Program-made: the position numbers and the translations under genes
Notes under the pieces: model-generated
Databases searched by the model: none
Told to the model about the DNA's origin: nothing
What the model saw: the letters and a program-made list of their open reading frames with translations, nothing else
Shown: positions 1 through 17,049 of the stretch, piece after piece
Layout: each line of letters starts with the position of its first letter
Position numbering within the stretch: the first letter of the stretch is position 1
IMG/VR virus record: IMGVR_UViG_3300009093_000004
Location: 7,735-71,734 of that record
Direction: 5' to 3' (one strand)
Origin: a virus
Length of the DNA: 64,000 nt

Positions 1-131
1 TCGGACGGGGACAGACCCAGGATGCGCTCATAATGGGCCACGATCGAATACTGGGAGGGCTCCAGATGGTGATCACGGACGTACCTGCGGCCCTGATGGA
101 AGGTCCCGGCGAAGATCAGTTTCTTCTTCAT
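1..131 (-). CDS. hypothetical protein, truncated at window edge (MKKKLIFAGTFHQGRRYVRDHHLEPSQYSIVAHYERILGLSPS...)
   Basis: Hand-translated; ATG overlaps the stop of the upstream gene (ATGA). Confidence 0.6.
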   Translation of the reverse strand, partial: MKKKLIFAGTFHQGRRYVRDHHLEPSQYSIVAHYERILGLSPS

Positions 132-298
132 CGACTGGCCTGATAAGCAAGGAAGGCCTCAGTAGCGGTGGCCCCATACCCAGGCGATTCTTTCCACCAG
201 TAGTACCGGCCATAGATCCCAGAGCGGCCGCGCAAGCGTAGGAAGGGCCGGTCCACGCATCTCCAGATCCCGTTCATCAGGAAGATGTGCGGCTTCAC
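128..298 (-). CDS. hypothetical protein
   Basis: GTG start overlaps the lasso gene stop (GTGA); same frame as track ORF 128..319. Confidence 0.55.
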   Translation of the reverse strand: MKPHIFLMNGIWRCVDRPFLRLRGRSGIYGRYYWWKESPGYGATATEAFLAYQASR

Positions 299-450
299 GG
301 CGGGATATGCACCCACCACCCAAAGGGCGGGACGGTCGTCTCCATGAAGTGCCCCAAGAGCATCCCCTGGGTCAGCTCCGAGGCCTTCCCAAGATCCACG
401 ATCTCTACTTCCGTCTCAGGTTTCTCGTCCATCACATCGGTCCTTGTCAT
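295..450 (-). CDS. lasso peptide precursor (proteobacterial-type leader), MTRTDVMDEKPETEVEIVDLGKASELTQ|GMLLGHFMETTVPPFGWWVHIPP
   Basis: Hand-translated, below the ORF-track cut-off. Leader DLGxASxxTx|G with Thr at -2; core Gly1 and Glu9. Coupled to both neighbours (ATGA/GTGA); alternative start at 432 has an AAGGA RBS. Confidence 0.8.
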   Translation of the reverse strand: MTRTDVMDEKPETEVEIVDLGKASELTQGMLLGHFMETTVPPFGWWVHIPP

Positions 451-587
451 AGCTTGTGCTCATGCGCCTTGTTGCGCAGCTTGTCTCCCGGATACCCGCA
501 GCGGGGACTCTTCACCCGCTTGTAGATCTGTTCCTGCGGTAGGTATGGCGGCCGAAGCTGCTCATAAGCCGTCTTCGACCCTGTCAT
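447..587 (-). CDS. small hypothetical protein (MTGSKTAYEQ...)
   Basis: AAGGA RBS before ATG at 587; frame of track ORF 447..635. Confidence 0.5.
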   Translation of the reverse strand: MTGSKTAYEQLRPPYLPQEQIYKRVKSPRCGYPGDKLRNKAHEHKL

Positions 588-851
588 AGCAATTTCCTTT
601 CTATCCACTCGGAAGACCTCGCAAGAATATTTCATTTATGTCAACCATGACGAAACTTTCTCCCCTCCTATCCCCAGTTCCGTGAAGGAATCCTCCGGGA
701 GGTCTACACCTCAAACAGTCCCGGAGGGGTTCCCCGCACTAGTGGTTGAGGGATCGCAACCTCTTTCTCAGGGACCACCGCTCCTGGGCTACGCCTTCCC
801 CATATCCTATCCCGTGTACAGATACAGGAAAAGGATTGTTTTGCGATAAAG

Positions 852-1013
852 CTAGGGGACTGGAGGGTCCAGGATCCGATCCACCTCCCTGCCCACCGCA
901 CGGTACTTGAGGCACCCACAGCAGTCATTCACTTCCTCCCGCACCCGCCGTAATAGCTCCAGCAGATACGCCCGCTCCTTCATCATCTCTTCTATGTCAA
1001 CTGCGGCGCCCAT
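852..1013 (-). CDS. small hypothetical protein with CCGC motif
   Basis: Hand-translated MGAAVDIEEMMKERAYLL...; GGGAGA RBS. Confidence 0.5.
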   Translation of the reverse strand: MGAAVDIEEMMKERAYLLELLRRVREEVNDCCGCLKYRAVGREVDRILDPPVP

Positions 1014-1233
1014 TCTCCCTTCCTATATGCAGCTCCCACTCCCCACCAATCTTCTCCCATAGATCCAAGAGAGTGTCCGTACGGGCCTCCCACGCCCCAG
1101 ACAGCAACGATGAAAAGTTCGACTTGCGCAGCCCCATCCGCCGCGCCGCCTCAGCCTGCGTAATCCCCTCCTCCCGGATCCACTCCCTGATCCCTCGCAA
1201 AACCTCCCCTCTTATCCGTTCACGTGATCTCAT
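997..1233 (-). CDS. XRE-family helix-turn-helix regulator
   Basis: GITQAEAARRMGLRKSNFSSLLSG is a typical HTH_3/HTH_37 pattern. Confidence 0.85.
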   Translation of the reverse strand: MRSRERIRGEVLRGIREWIREEGITQAEAARRMGLRKSNFSSLLSGAWEARTDTLLDLWEKIGGEWELHIGRENGRRS

Positions 1234-1506
1234 TCTGGGAATTATATATCAATGTACCCCACGGGACAGGGTCCCATCAGAGGGGGGTGTCCGGGGGATT
1301 CCTAGACAGGGTCGGGGTGGGATGGATAGGGAGATGGAGGGGTGGATTAGATGGACAGGTGAAGGGGTGGTGCGTCGATGGGACCCGAGAGCCTCCGGCG
1401 CGAACCGCTCCCCCCCGGTGGGGGTCGGTCCACCCTGCCCAGGTCGATCTATAGGACCGATGGATATAGACCTAATCCTGATCGATTAGAACACGAAGTT
1501 CATATA

Positions 1507-1519
1507 GATCAATAAGTTA
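1507..1519 (+). promoter_or_regulatory. IHF-binding-site-like element
   Basis: GATCAATAAGTTA vs WATCAANNNNTTR (one mismatch); abuts the dif-like site. Confidence 0.5.
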
Positions 1520-1521
1520 CG

Positions 1522-1549
1522 ATATGACATAAGATGCATTATGCGCAGT
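1522..1549 (-). other. dif: XerCD dif-like recombination site
   Basis: Minus strand ACTGCGCATAA-TGCATC-TTATGTCATAT vs E. coli dif GGTGCGCATAA-TGTATA-TTATGTTAAAT; 11-6-11 layout, 22/28 identical; intergenic AT-rich patch. Confidence 0.85.
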
Positions 1550-1713
1550 TAGGTCCGATCCTTGATGCTTAGGGTCGGTCCGATCGGTAGGGCCGGACCC
1601 TCCACGGAGGGGAGGCGATCCCCCTAGGTACTGTTCCTGTCCATCCCTGCGATGTAGATCCTGTACGATCCTATCGGTCCTATCCTTGATCCTACCGACC
1701 CGACCGACCGACC

Positions 1714-4263: not shown

Positions 4264-5424
4264 ATGTCCGTACCTTCAACCGTTCTCACCCAGGCTTCCC
4301 GTCAATGGGCCACTCGTCCCGCCGATCAGCGGTTCGCCTCGCTCCTGACCCTGCAGTCCTTCGTGAATAACGTCTATAGCGCGAGCAAAGAGAAGGTCCT
4401 CCCCTCGCGCGCCATCCTGGCCCAACCCGATCCCACGGATAACTTCAAGGGCCTTCAGATCGTCGGGCCCAATGGTGGACCGGTCAATGCAACCCATTGG
4501 TCCTTTGGCCAGCTGGCGGGCCTGGCTGGGGCTCCTGCAGGGTATCTACGCAGCCTCCCGGCGCCCTTGGCGGCTGACAACCTGAACTACGGCATACAGC
4601 TGGCTCGTGATGTGAAGGACATAGGCGTCCTGCTTTACAAGAACGGCGGTCCTGCGGAGCTACGTGCGGCCACAGGCCCCAATTACGGACGCATCTGGAA
4701 CCGGGATATCGTGAATGTGCTCGTAGACCGCTGCGGCGATGGTCTGACGGGCGATTTCCGCGTGCCACGGGAATTCGGCAAAGCGGTCACCGTCACCAAG
4801 GACAACACGACGCTTTTCGCCTCCGATCGCGACATGTTCGTATTCCTGGCCGATGAGGAGCATCGCATCGAGATCCCCAATCGGCGTAACGGCCAGTCCG
4901 GCTCACTCGCGCGTGGCTTCTTCATCTGGAATTCGGAAGTCGGCGCTTCCACCTTCGGCATCGCGCTCTTCCTGTTCGATTACGTGTGCTGCAATCGCAT
5001 CGTGTGGGGCGCACAGGAGTATCAGGAGATCAGGGTACGTCACACTGCCAGTGCGGGTGTACACCTTCGTGAGCGTGTGTTGCCTGCACTCGACTCCTAC
5101 TCGCGGTCCTCTACTGTCGGCGTACAGCAAGCCATCGCTGCGGCCCAGGAGAAAAAAATCGATGACCTGGAGAAGTTCCTGGCCAATCGCAATTTCAACA
5201 AAGCACAGATTAAGGCGATCAACGCGACACACCTGGAAGAAGAAGGCCGGCCCATCGAAACCCTGTGGGATGCGACTACGGCGGTGACGGCCTACGCGCG
5301 CGGCATCCAGCATCAGGATGAGCGCGTGAAGCTCGAACGGGAAGGGGGAAAGATTCTACAGCTCACCAGCAAGGGGAAGTTTGCTCTTCCCAAACTGGAC
5401 CAGGCGTTGCTGTCGGATGAGTGA
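4264..5424 (+). CDS. DUF932-like phage/plasmid protein
   Basis: 386 aa with GFFIWNSEVG and YVCCNRIVWG...RVRHT motifs typical of DUF932/DUF945. Confidence 0.75.
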   Translation: MSVPSTVLTQASRQWATRPADQRFASLLTLQSFVNNVYSASKEKVLPSRAILAQPDPTDNFKGLQIVGPNGGPVNATHWSFGQLAGLAGAPAGYLRSLPAPLAADNLNYGIQLARDVKDIGVLLYKNGGPAELRAATGPNYGRIWNRDIVNVLVDRCGDGLTGDFRVPREFGKAVTVTKDNTTLFASDRDMFVFLADEEHRIEIPNRRNGQSGSLARGFFIWNSEVGASTFGIALFLFDYVCCNRIVWGAQEYQEIRVRHTASAGVHLRERVLPALDSYSRSSTVGVQQAIAAAQEKKIDDLEKFLANRNFNKAQIKAINATHLEEEGRPIETLWDATTAVTAYARGIQHQDERVKLEREGGKILQLTSKGKFALPKLDQALLSDE

Positions 5425-12871: not shown

Positions 12872-13452
12872 CCCATGGACAGTGCCACTGTCGTGTGTGC
12901 GTGGGGGACCATGCTGGATATGGTCCATGCATGCTCACCTCAAAACCTGTAAACAAAGACCCTACCGGCTGGCGCGAGTTCATTCAGAACGTGATCGACG
13001 GCAAAAACTACTTCCGCGCTGGCGAGTATATGCAACTGCTTCAGCAGCTTGAAACAGTGACGCGGGAGCGAGACGAAGCGCTTTCGAAGCTAAGAGCTGA
13101 CGAGACGCCAGCACCTATCAATCAATGTGACGGTTGCCGTCGTGGGCTTCCCAAGAACGAGCGTGGTATTCACGTCGGCCCAGGCGGATTTTGGGCTGGT
13201 GACGTGCAGGGCTGTACCGCGCACTTGTACTCACCGGAGGAACCGACCCGTGAGCTTTCGGCTAGCGAGGCTGCGTCATTCGACAAGACACTGGCGCGTT
13301 CGCCACGTCGCATCCCGCCGCGCGAATTCGACGTCGAGAGCCATACGGGGCTCTATCCGTCCGATGAACTGTCGGAGACTAGCGGTCCGGAGAAAGCCAG
13401 AGAGCCTAACCAACAGGCGAATGCTGCGATCCAAAAGGCAGAAGGCAAATGA
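12868..13452 (+). CDS. modular hypothetical protein
   Basis: ORF track; Cys/His clusters joined by short linkers. Confidence 0.65.
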   Translation: MTHGQCHCRVCVGDHAGYGPCMLTSKPVNKDPTGWREFIQNVIDGKNYFRAGEYMQLLQQLETVTRERDEALSKLRADETPAPINQCDGCRRGLPKNERGIHVGPGGFWAGDVQGCTAHLYSPEEPTRELSASEAASFDKTLARSPRRIPPREFDVESHTGLYPSDELSETSGPEKAREPNQQANAAIQKAEGK

Positions 13453-13631
13453 TGCAGGCCTATTCCAACATGTACTACCACTGGGGATGGGTCGTGGTCT
13501 CCTTCGCCGGGTTTGTAGTAGGTATCTGGGCCGGATTCACACGCAAGTGGTACGCCTTTTTTCTCTGGCTAGTAGCGGTTGCCGCTCTAGGTGGGTTGGC
13601 CTTCAAGTACAAAGAGGGGATATACGAATGA
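13449..13631 (+). CDS. small two-TM membrane protein
   Basis: Hydrophobic profile; coupled at both ends. Confidence 0.65.
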   Translation: MMQAYSNMYYHWGWVVVSFAGFVVGIWAGFTRKWYAFFLWLVAVAALGGLAFKYKEGIYE

Positions 13632-14467
13632 TCACAGTGATAGACAGTGACAACTACGCGGCATCCGGCATCGAGACCATAGTGTTCCCTGGAGGGGAGC
13701 CGCATGTAAAGCTCCCGATCTTCCCGGTCCAGAAGCATGAGGACTTCATCCTCCTGTACCTCAAGGCCAGGACCTTGCTCGATACCTTCAACGGGGCCCT
13801 GGTGCTTGATGCCCTGTCCCGTCAGGGGCAACGGGCCAAGCTCTTCTGTCCCTACTTTCCCGGTGCCCGCCAGGATCGGGCCAATGATGGGACCGCGCCT
13901 CTCACCATCGAAATCATGGGACAGCTACTTTCTCATCGCCCCACCTACGTCTTTGATCTCCATTCCGATCTCGCCCGTGTTGCCATGGATTGGGACCCAA
14001 GTATTCTCATGCCCTCGGATCTTCCCGAAGGAGTCCAGGGTCAATGGGATGGTGTGATCGCTCCGGACAAAGGCGCATTGAACAGAGCTATGGATTTCCT
14101 ACAGAAATTCTGCCCTGGTACGTACATCTTCCGATGTGAGAAGGACCGGGATCCAAAGACCGGTCGCATCCTGAGCTACCAGATGCCACCTCTTCCTAAG
14201 TCCGGGCACTACATCGTGGTGGATGATATCTGTGATGGTGGAGCAACCTTCAACCTACTAGCCGAGTGCTGGGGTACTGACTGGCTTGCTTCAGGTTCCA
14301 CTCTGGATTTGTTCGTATCCCACGGAATCTTCTCTCGTGGGATAGGGAACATTAGCCCTATCTATCACAACATCATCACTACGGACAGCTGGTGTCAGGC
14401 GAACACCTTCGGACGGTTGAGAGTGATCCCACTCCTCCCACAACTGCTGCCCCTCTTTGGGACGTAA
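13628..14467 (+). CDS. ribose-phosphate pyrophosphokinase-like protein (probable NARP1 Adps)
   Basis: FPGGE, PYFPGARQDR, DLHS, APDKGA and VVDDICDGGATF PRTase loop; start moved to MITVID. Confidence 0.9.
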   Translation: MITVIDSDNYAASGIETIVFPGGEPHVKLPIFPVQKHEDFILLYLKARTLLDTFNGALVLDALSRQGQRAKLFCPYFPGARQDRANDGTAPLTIEIMGQLLSHRPTYVFDLHSDLARVAMDWDPSILMPSDLPEGVQGQWDGVIAPDKGALNRAMDFLQKFCPGTYIFRCEKDRDPKTGRILSYQMPPLPKSGHYIVVDDICDGGATFNLLAECWGTDWLASGSTLDLFVSHGIFSRGIGNISPIYHNIITTDSWCQANTFGRLRVIPLLPQLLPLFGT

Positions 14468-15567: not shown

Positions 15568-17049
15568 ATGTTTGGACTGATCGGGATGACGGACGGGTAT
15601 AAGCTGGACCATCGGCGCCAGTATCCTGTAGGAACTGAGTATGTCTATTCAAACTTCACGGCCCGGTCTACCAGGATCGGTGGACAGGACGCGGTGATCT
15701 TCTTTGGCCTACAGCGCTTCTTGATGAAGTACTTTACCTACCAGGCAATCGCTACCTTTTTCGATGAGCCTGCCAAGGCGGTTCGGGATGCCTATAGGGA
15801 ATTCCTCCGCAGCTACCTGGGAGAGCAGGCTGGTGCCATGGTCGGGACCGATCACATCATGGCTCTGCACAAGCTGGGCTATCTACCCCTGGAAATCCGG
15901 GCCCTCCCGGAAGGGACGGCCGTTCCCTATCGGGTCCCGATGCTCACTATCGAGAACACCCACCCAGATTTCTTCTGGCTGACCAACTACTTCGAGACCT
16001 TACTCTCGTGCAACCTGTGGCTCCCGTGCACGTCGGCCACCACCGCGCTTCGCTACAGGAAGATTCTCACCCACTATTCCAGTCTCACCACTGGGAAAAT
16101 AGATCTGGTCCCGTATCAGGGGCATGATTTTTCCTTCCGGGGCCTCGAAGGAGTTGAGGGAGCGGAGCTATCTGGGGCAGGACATCTTCTCTCCTTCCTG
16201 GGTACGGACTGCATCCCCGCCATCCAGATGCTTAAGGAGGATTACTTCGGAACAGGAACTATCGGGATCTCTGTCCCAGCGACTGAGCATTCCGTCATGT
16301 GTGCCGGGGGCCAGGGAGATGAACTAGCCACATTCGCCAGACTCTTGGACCTTTACCCGTCAGGCTACATCTCGATCGTTTCGGACACGTGGGACTTGTG
16401 GAAGGTTCTGGGAACCTATCTCCCCACCCTCAAGGAAAAGATCCTTGATCGAGATGGGGCCTTGATCATCCGTCCTGACTCCGGAGACCCGGTACTGATC
16501 CTGACAGGGGATGCCTCGGCCACGCCAGGTAGCCTACAGCACAAGGGGGTCGTGGAATCCCTGTGGGATATCTTCGGCGGCGCCGTGAGCCCTACTGGAT
16601 ACAAGGTCCTAGATAGTCATATCGGGACCATCTACGGAGATTCCATCACGGTCGAGCGGGCTCAGGCGATCTGTGAGCGTCTGAAGGAAAAGGGTTTTGC
16701 TTCCACCAATGTTGTGTTCGGGATCGGTTCGTACACATACCAGTATGTGACCCGAGACACCAACGGGTTTGCTATGAAGGCCACCTGGGCTCAGGTGAAC
16801 GGTGAGGAGCGACTTCTCCAGAAGGACCCGGTCACGGATACGTCTGGAAAAAAGTCAGCTCGTGGCCGGTTGGTCGTGGTACAAGACAAGGACGGGTTAC
16901 GTCTGATCGATGGGCTCACCAAGAAGGAGCAAGAAGGGTACGGCACTGTCGATCTACTTCAGCCTGTCTGGAGGGATGGAAATTTCATGCTGGGCCGAAC
17001 ATTGACGCTCGCTGAAATACGTCAGAGAGTGGCTAGTCTGGTTCGATAA
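15568..17049 (+). CDS. nicotinamide phosphoribosyltransferase-like protein (probable NARP1 Namat)
   Basis: TDGYKLDH, HDFSFRG, PATEHSVM, SIVSDTWD, IRPDSGDP, IYGDSIT, FGIGS, KKSARG. Confidence 0.95.
   Translation: MFGLIGMTDGYKLDHRRQYPVGTEYVYSNFTARSTRIGGQDAVIFFGLQRFLMKYFTYQAIATFFDEPAKAVRDAYREFLRSYLGEQAGAMVGTDHIMALHKLGYLPLEIRALPEGTAVPYRVPMLTIENTHPDFFWLTNYFETLLSCNLWLPCTSATTALRYRKILTHYSSLTTGKIDLVPYQGHDFSFRGLEGVEGAELSGAGHLLSFLGTDCIPAIQMLKEDYFGTGTIGISVPATEHSVMCAGGQGDELATFARLLDLYPSGYISIVSDTWDLWKVLGTYLPTLKEKILDRDGALIIRPDSGDPVLILTGDASATPGSLQHKGVVESLWDIFGGAVSPTGYKVLDSHIGTIYGDSITVERAQAICERLKEKGFASTNVVFGIGSYTYQYVTRDTNGFAMKATWAQVNGEERLLQKDPVTDTSGKKSARGRLVVVQDKDGLRLIDGLTKKEQEGYGTVDLLQPVWRDGNFMLGRTLTLAEIRQRVASLVR

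Follow-up and report, generated by a model that had tools for sequence, protein, structure and literature searches.

To our knowledge, lasso peptides are known solely as products of self-contained bacterial clusters, and the phage-borne peptide natural products described so far bring their own enzymes. Precursors that are encoded apart from their enzyme do exist, as scattered prochlorosin precursors are matured in trans by one enzyme, ProcM, via leader recognition alone. In both the prochlorosins and the gene described here the precursor is remote from the enzyme, the difference being that prochlorosins and ProcM share one genome, whereas here a split between virus and host would apply. AimP, the phage arbitrium pre-pro-peptide, is processed by general proteases of the host, and a receptor encoded by the phage senses it. 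It resembles the present peptide in being a small phage peptide with host-dependent processing (which is proposed in our case), but the two have no sequence relation, and no receptor gene was recognisable in our phage.

The rules for lasso precursors, as they are set out in excerpts from PMC7549694, are that an RRE binds the leader, that threonine is the penultimate leader residue, that the first core residue is small and that an Asp or Glu forms the lactam. According to the available portion of a survey of phage-borne clusters, almost all of these are bacteriocins, and the word "lasso" occurred 0 times in that portion of the text (bioRxiv 10.1101/2020.10.01.322628). Temperate-phage RiPP and bacteriocin clusters, such as sublancin on SPbeta, are like the present locus in that a ribosomal peptide gene is borne by a phage; as far as the same excerpts describe them, those clusters add modification, immunity and export genes, whereas the precursor in our phage stands alone (bioRxiv 10.1101/2020.10.01.322628). 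An earlier examination of the DNA (the sequence-only reading) had known of no lasso precursor described in a phage. At the level of titles and abstracts we likewise found none in print, though supplementary files may list some. The family name "DUF5974", which designates one of the models matched below, had no occurrence in the full-text literature.

The stretch of DNA analysed (64 kb, referred to as the window) comprises bases 7735-71734 of a 71,734-bp record that has direct terminal repeats, with a 123-bp repeat at the genome ends, and an estimated completeness of 100%. PHROG matches identified a large terminase (phrog_2, E 2e-14), a portal (phrog_1216, E 1.7e-8), and tape-measure-like, virion and tail fibre proteins; a complete genome with large terminase, portal and tail genes of this kind is that of a tailed phage (Caudoviricetes). 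Its nearest cultured phages were the Caulobacter vibrioides phages GB2A, RLK, KcrB and RW, with an amino acid identity of 42.7% over 93% for TerL and of 44.2% over 75% for the portal. Since this relationship is distant, an alphaproteobacterial host is indicated loosely at most. The sequencing runs holding phage sequence were labelled as soil or rhizosphere metagenomes, and there were no RNA runs among those listed. No tyrosine integrase was found and the window had no tRNA genes. Among the 40 proteins scanned against PHROG, none matched an integration family, bar a weak match to a DNA-transposition protein on a Cro-like HTH protein.

DNA comparison found no close cultured phage. The sole stretch with DNA-level similarity to cultured phages was the gene of a DUF932 / phrog_1362 protein (window 4264-5424, plus strand), at 67.5% to Synechococcus virus S-ESS1 and 72.9% to Erythrobacter phage ZS04, in which it is annotated as an "integrase". 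Two sister phages (G001 and G002, both near-complete records) were identified via the portal, which was 83% identical. They were syntenic with our phage, with 68-79% nucleotide identity over the structural module.

At the left end of the window, the sequence-only reading had proposed a 51-codon minus-strand ORF at 295..450 with an ATG start, and our ORF listing contained it exactly as claimed. The details reported for its surroundings were also borne out. The ATG at 450-448 overlaps the TGA at 449-447 of the upstream ORF 447-635 (ATGA), the stop codon TGA at 297-295 overlaps an in-frame GTG at 298-296 of the downstream ORF (GTGA), and the motif AAGGA at 445-441 lies 8 nt 5' of a second in-frame ATG at 432-430, which encodes Met7. 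The assertion that the gene had been overlooked was right in part: the ORF is in the window as described, but its 45-aa form was already called in the public protein collection. That form (P0001) is present there on 5 contigs and has a precomputed PF19399 match.

We consider Met7 the likely start of the peptide, giving 45 aa, because P0001 and a diverged relative, P0002, both begin there and because all profile matches start there. The six codons ahead of it lie outside every model match and are absent from P0001 and P0002 (Table 1). A codon-usage model trained on 25 long ORFs of the same phage was used to compare the six frames over 298-450. The peptide frame had the best coding score of the six, +10.7 bits, against -2.0 to -52.0 for the other five. 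The gene scored 0.21-0.24 bits/codon, compared to 0.29 +/- 0.12 for the 25 long phage ORFs, and had a GC3 of 0.80. Together, these features give 295-432 on the minus strand the appearance of a real, translatable phage gene for a 45-aa peptide. An A+T-rich patch with TTGACA at window 636-700 (minus strand), directly 5' of the small ORF lying ahead of the peptide gene, may be a candidate promoter for this string of genes; a sigma-70 scan of window 1-1600 returned 0 sites.

Table 1. Features of the peptide locus and of one further region of the phage (window coordinates unless stated otherwise).
Feature	Position	Strand	Basis or remark
Start of 206-aa ORF, next in the leftward string	1..131	-	Extends beyond the window; genome 7245-7865
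Downstream small ORF, 63 aa (56 aa from GTG at 298)	128..319	-	GTG overlaps the peptide stop
Preferred CDS, 45-aa lasso-precursor-like peptide from Met7	295..432	-	ORF listing, model register, coding score; stop 297-295
Putative core, 23 aa (Gly1 366-364, Glu9 342-340, aromatic tail)	298..366	-	ORF translation
Leader region, 22 aa, Thr at -2 (codon 372-370)	367..432	-	Matches to NF033522, PF19399 and PF24178; aligns with the P0004 leader
Possible 6-codon N-terminal extension	433..450	-	ATG at 450-448 overlaps the upstream stop
AAGGA Shine-Dalgarno-like motif	441..445	-	Read from the sequence; 8 nt 5' of the Met7 ATG
Upstream small ORF, 62 aa (46 aa if begun at an internal ATG preceded by AAGGAA)	447..635	-	Stop overlaps the ATG at 450
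Cro/CI-type HTH protein, head of the leftward early region	997..1233	-	PF13744 E 3.3e-6; phrog_2339 E 2.4e-10
Nicotinamide phosphoribosyltransferase region	15568-17049 and 13127-14467	+	PF04095, NAMPT_N, weak phosphoribosyltransferase-domain match

The N-terminal part of the peptide matched several curated models of lasso precursors. The E-values were 1.2e-7 for NF033522 (benenodin family lasso peptide; 31.4 bits, curated cut-off 33), 4.8e-8 for PF19399 (DUF5974; 33.2 bits, cut-off 38.5), 7.8e-5 for PF24178 (subterisin; 23 bits, cut-off 27), 6.3e-5 for NF033525 (albusnodin) and 0.067 for NF033521 (lasso leader). The stretch aligned to NF033522, PF19399 and PF24178 was residues 7-37 of the 51-aa frame, and model position 1 of these three (position 7 of NF033525) aligned to Met7 or Asp8. 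Although the E-values were significant, the peptide stayed below the curated cut-off of NF033522, PF24178 and PF19399 alike, because model positions 1-26 or 1-29 alone align, that is, the leader and the first core residues. In addition, 18 of 30 feature neighbours in the ESM Atlas belonged to PF24178 (subterisin) clusters, with a top score of 0.92 that is subject to the tool's own caveats.

A tblastn search with the peptide against 72,556 plasmids gave two records at E<=10, one of which was the Sphingobium indicum UT26S plasmid pCHQ1. The protein matched there is WP_013041639.1 (P0004), annotated as a benenodin family lasso peptide, which is probably the sphingonodin II precursor. Its gene lies directly upstream of lasso B2 and asparagine-synthetase-family genes, with a GntR regulator and a TonB-dependent receptor nearby. 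Sphingonodins are listed from S. japonicum UT26 in excerpts from PMC7549694.

The phage peptide and this benenodin/subterisin-type precursor are in the same length class (45 and 46 aa), and their leaders are collinear from Met1. BLASTP aligned them Met1 to Met1 with 17/37 residues identical (E 1e-8 as a single comparison), through the same T-Q-G-M junction. Both carry the stretch E-V...(I/V)-D-L-G-x-A-S-x-x-T-Q-G-M, with Thr at -2 and Gly1. The two differ in that the bacterial gene is accompanied by B2, cyclase, GntR regulator and TonB-dependent receptor genes and the phage gene by none of these; in that the cores are unrelated, with Glu9 as the acceptor in the phage peptide and Asp8 in P0004; and in their NF033522 scores (31.4 bits compared to 56 bits for P0004).

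Short acidic N-termini could score on short lasso-leader profiles by chance, and several observations are compatible with this: the three family scores are below their cut-offs, the tblastn E-value against whole collections is insignificant (E = 10 for the plasmid set), and the short models also produced background matches at E<=10 in control genomes (5/14 for NF033522 and 4/14 for PF19399). We nevertheless consider a chance resemblance extremely unlikely. None of the control-genome matches reached a cut-off, whereas the peptide had per-genome E-values of 3e-8 (NF033522) and 9e-9 (PF19399). In six-frame searches of the three phage genomes at E<=10, each of these two models matched 1/3, at the peptide locus alone, and neither matched either sister phage. 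Four independent curated models agree on the register, and the alignment to P0004, a precursor whose gene adjoins B2 and cyclase-family genes, stays collinear over the whole stretch between Met1 and the cleavage junction. Moreover, a profile free of phage peptides, based on the bacterial precursors P0004, P0005 and a third from MT835580.1 (L025), was run against all 5,202 segments (25 aa or longer) in the six-frame translations of our phage and the two sister phages. With 23.3 bits (E 1.4e-5), the peptide ORF was 17 bits ahead of the next segment, which scored 6.2 bits. The stretch G-x-A-S-x-x-T-x-G is common to the peptide and all three bacterial precursors.

The peptide thus has, in sequence, both a Thr at -2 and the stretch expected for RRE recognition. 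The suggestion that the leader is of the proteobacterial lasso type gains support from the four model matches, the P0004 alignment and the three-precursor profile. By sequence comparison, we regard it as established that the 22-residue N-terminal part shares homology with the leaders of class II lasso precursors from Alphaproteobacteria; by its scores, the peptide is not a formal member of the benenodin subfamily.

For the C-terminal part, we numbered the putative core from Gly29 of the 51-aa frame as position 1. The translation contains the features that had been listed for it, namely Gly1, a Glu9 acceptor and F15/W17/W18 in the tail. Glu9 is the sole acidic residue of the putative core, which lacks Cys, contains two His and ends in a tail rich in Pro and Trp; Phe15, Trp17 and Trp18 lie within the 14 residues after Glu9, and the Thr(-2)-x / Gly1 junction is canonical. 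A small first residue and an Asp or Glu at 7-9 are present in both P0001 and P0002. The 23-residue C-terminal part thus has what is formally needed of a lasso core, and the product itself is putative.

P0002, from the public protein collection, is an intact protein of 45 aa that is present on 5 contigs and is 76% identical to P0001. The differences between them are unevenly distributed: 9/22 leader positions differ, as opposed to 2/23 core positions, which are core positions 2 and 3 (Fisher p = 0.017). They agree at every one of the last 20 residues, the cleavage junction and Glu9 are kept in both, and the leader positions fixed between the two are those common to bacterial leaders. The sequence-only reading had advised a search of related phages for leaders that are conserved and cores that vary. 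We did not find such a pattern in a larger set of phages; there were two lineages, in which the leader varies and the core is invariant.

One explanation for an invariant C-terminus is that a captured lasso precursor has been exapted and now acts unmodified, for example as a small protein whose hydrophobic or aromatic C-terminus binds a membrane or a protein of the host or phage, with no involvement of a lasso enzyme. The conservation of the last 20 residues agrees with this, as do the tight coupling to phage ORFans and the finding that no bacterial lasso core is related to that of the peptide (among 1.84 billion representatives, there was no relative besides P0002). We regard it as unlikely, in that it leaves unexplained why Thr(-2), Gly1, the G-x-A-S-x-x-T stretch and a single Glu9 are all retained in both variants.

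The sequence-only reading had recognised no lasso B, C or RRE gene in the window, and our searches agreed, with 0 matches in the 64 kb. It had also advised a check of the rest of the contig for B and C genes; there were none in the 7.7 kb outside the window either, so the peptide gene is still an orphan. Six-frame searches of the complete 71,734-bp genome gave 0 matches at E<=1 for each of PF13471 (lasso B protease core), PF00733 (Asn-synthase-type cyclase), PF05402 (PqqD/RRE), PF00005 (ABC transporter ATPase, exporter) and PF00326 (S9 peptidase, isopeptidase). Precursor, B and C are thus not found together in the complete genome, and the neighbours of the peptide gene are without such domains. 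As judged by these domain searches, the peptide gene is an orphan precursor-like gene in a complete phage genome.

The 62- and 63-aa ORFs that flank the peptide gene had no family match (Pfam, NCBIfam, PHROG). The stop of the downstream ORF overlaps the ATG of the 206-aa ORF, for which there was no Pfam or PHROG family and no usable match in the Atlas; the sole non-identical relative of the 206-aa protein covers 25% of it and has no tie to P0002. Through the start and stop overlaps on both sides, the peptide ORF belongs to a coupled series of genes that run leftward. The rest of the genome beyond the window, 7.7 kb, contains small ORFans, a RecA-dependent nuclease, a DUF7873 protein and a family-less 554-aa protein. 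In this same leftward region, the nuclease homologue (PF16786, E 1.3e-14) is at L002 3331-3720 and the DUF7873 protein (PF25283, E 4.9e-62) at L002 5364-6152, both on the minus strand.

Comparison with the sister phages revealed that the early region bounded by the Cro-like HTH gene on one side and by a conserved 97-aa ORF on the other has been replaced in its entirety. In our phage this region is 3.9 kb and includes the peptide, and the sisters have a different 2.6 kb in its place. The HTH protein has homologues of 51-53% identity in G001 and G002 and marks one border of the cassette. The replaced region corresponds to genome 4858-8731 (window up to 997) in our phage and to 63133-65739 in G002, and its ORFs are unrelated. 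The peptide was absent from both sister phages (0/4 records at E<=10). As the region is swapped between relatives and the sisters are without the peptide, the gene is accessory cargo in an exchangeable early cassette, which lies downstream of the Cro-like regulator.

This location also bears on whether the gene could be a functionless, decaying piece of a lasso cluster, acquired from a host through illegitimate recombination. Such a remnant would fit a gene that is rare (two lineages, P0001 and P0002), that is absent from 2/2 near-complete sister phages and that lies in a region exchanged between relatives. It would not be expected to have a codon score typical of the phage's own genes, nor start and stop codons overlapping those of phage neighbours, nor a 76%-identical relative that is intact, of the same length, with start and stop kept and with strongly non-uniform change. 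There was also no trace of a B gene downstream (PF13471, six frames, E<=1). We therefore judge a remnant to be very unlikely. The P0001/P0002 pattern is suggestive of a different situation, as it is what would be expected if enzyme recognition and a specific product both matter.

A further explanation, which the sequence-only reading had also raised, is that the leader is a decoy, in which case the peptide would, during infection, occupy the host RRE/B (or the B/C complex) and block maturation of the host's own lasso peptide, and the core need not cyclise. This could be of use, for instance, where a host lasso peptide or its regulon hampers the phage. In keeping with a decoy, it is for the leader that homology can be demonstrated, the gene is in an early cassette, which is the usual site of host-takeover and counter-defence genes, and the phage has neither an exporter nor an immunity gene. 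Host-encoded lasso families in Sphingomonadales have also been described as co-expressed with defence systems, a correlative association in the available excerpts of that study (PMC11118758). A pure decoy, though, predicts the opposite of the observed pattern, in which the leader drifts (9/22) while the C-terminal 20 residues are invariant and the canonical junction and Glu9 acceptor are kept in both variants. We consider this explanation unlikely, slightly more so than an exapted peptide. In this comparison of two sequences, leader drift with an invariant core is suggestive of a product that matters, in preference to a leader acting purely as a decoy.

Based on these comparisons, we rank one possibility, likewise raised in the sequence-only reading, above the decoy, the exapted peptide, the remnant and chance: that a B/C pair of the host acts in trans on the peptide and converts it into a lasso peptide specified by the phage, with the product as the selected function. 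We favour this explanation tentatively, giving it close to but short of an even chance. A host with a lasso B (RRE-protease) and a C (cyclase) of matching leader preference would bind the phage peptide through its leader. Cleavage would occur after the residue that follows Thr(-2), and cyclisation of Gly1 to Glu9 would yield a phage-specified lasso peptide of 2630.30 Da. The function under selection would be that of this product, not of the leader.

It is plausible that the candidate host clade owns such systems, given the kinship to Caulobacter phages and the location of the closest leader on a Sphingomonadales plasmid. As a rule, a lasso cyclase tolerates little change in ring size or acceptor. 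In the two nearest bacterial precursors among those compared, core position 8 is Asp, whereas the phage peptide has Glu at 9, and the enzymes of these two precursors may therefore not accept it; the cognate enzyme, if any, is thus probably other than that of pCHQ1. Maturation by a host pair is also opposed by the fact that the two sister phages do without the gene and that there is no exporter. If the phage is strictly lytic, which would agree with no tyrosine integrase having been found, there would be little time for an ATP-dependent, two-enzyme maturation.

More broadly, and a shade more tentatively, we speculate that the locus is one half of a RiPP pathway split between virus and host. The phage would contribute a substrate-only gene with a leader tuned to the host B/C pair, and during infection or lysogeny the host enzymes would build a protease-resistant lasso of phage design. 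The lasso product might block a host enzyme or the cluster-associated TonB-dependent receptor. If this speculation is correct, RiPP leaders would be portable "addresses" through which a virus borrows or jams a host biosynthetic machine. Among the auxiliary or counter-host genes of phages, the gene would form a class of its own, a "substrate-only auxiliary gene" by which a natural-product pathway is reprogrammed, and it would be a natural pairing of precursor and enzyme across genomes. It would also add a new, strongly conserved lasso core with a Gly1-Glu9 ring and a Trp-rich tail.

Searches for further relatives identified P0001 and P0002 alone in the public protein collection, and a three-sequence profile search of the same collection added P0004 and P0005 alone. 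The search of the 1.84 billion representatives gave, besides P0002, a repeat-rich, tandem-domain surface protein of 2,062 aa (P0003) with an E-value of 1.1e-6 in 4 stretches, which on reading was a repeat-summed chance match. Peptide pattern scans confirmed 0/93 and 0/81 matches in genome contigs and 0/71 and 0/38 in metagenome contigs. In four scans of viral contigs, one match was confirmed in each (of 13, 35, 11 and 41 pattern matches), and each time it lay on one contig of 9,953 bp, a fragment of this phage at 99.75% identity. A tblastn search of the peptide against 50,697 phage records gave 4 records, none of them lasso-like (best E = 3), and a PDB sequence search gave chance matches alone (E 1.5). 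When P0004 was the tblastn query against phages, a place in Caulobacter phage CcrSC was matched at E = 3; it was rejected as it is antisense in an annotated gene and has neither a Met nor a T-x-G junction.

One candidate for a phage with a full lasso cluster was also considered. The Sphingobium B2 protein matched a single record among the 50,697 phage records by tblastn, MT835580.1, which is labelled "UNVERIFIED: Bacteriophage sp." This record has a complete lasso cluster (L025 4803-9439) comprising a 43-aa precursor, B, C and an S9-type peptidase, and the cluster adjoins a TonB-dependent receptor, a type IV coupling protein and ArdC. We rejected it as a phage because 0/10 of the large proteins scanned (L027, 1-50000) had phage hallmarks; by its gene content, it looks like a conjugative element.

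Elsewhere in the window, the phage encodes a nicotinamide phosphoribosyltransferase (PF04095, E 3.9e-38, plus NAMPT_N) near a 446-aa protein with a weak phosphoribosyltransferase-domain match (Table 1). Together, the two look like a module for NAD+ salvage, a type that in phages has been proposed to act against NAD-depleting defence.
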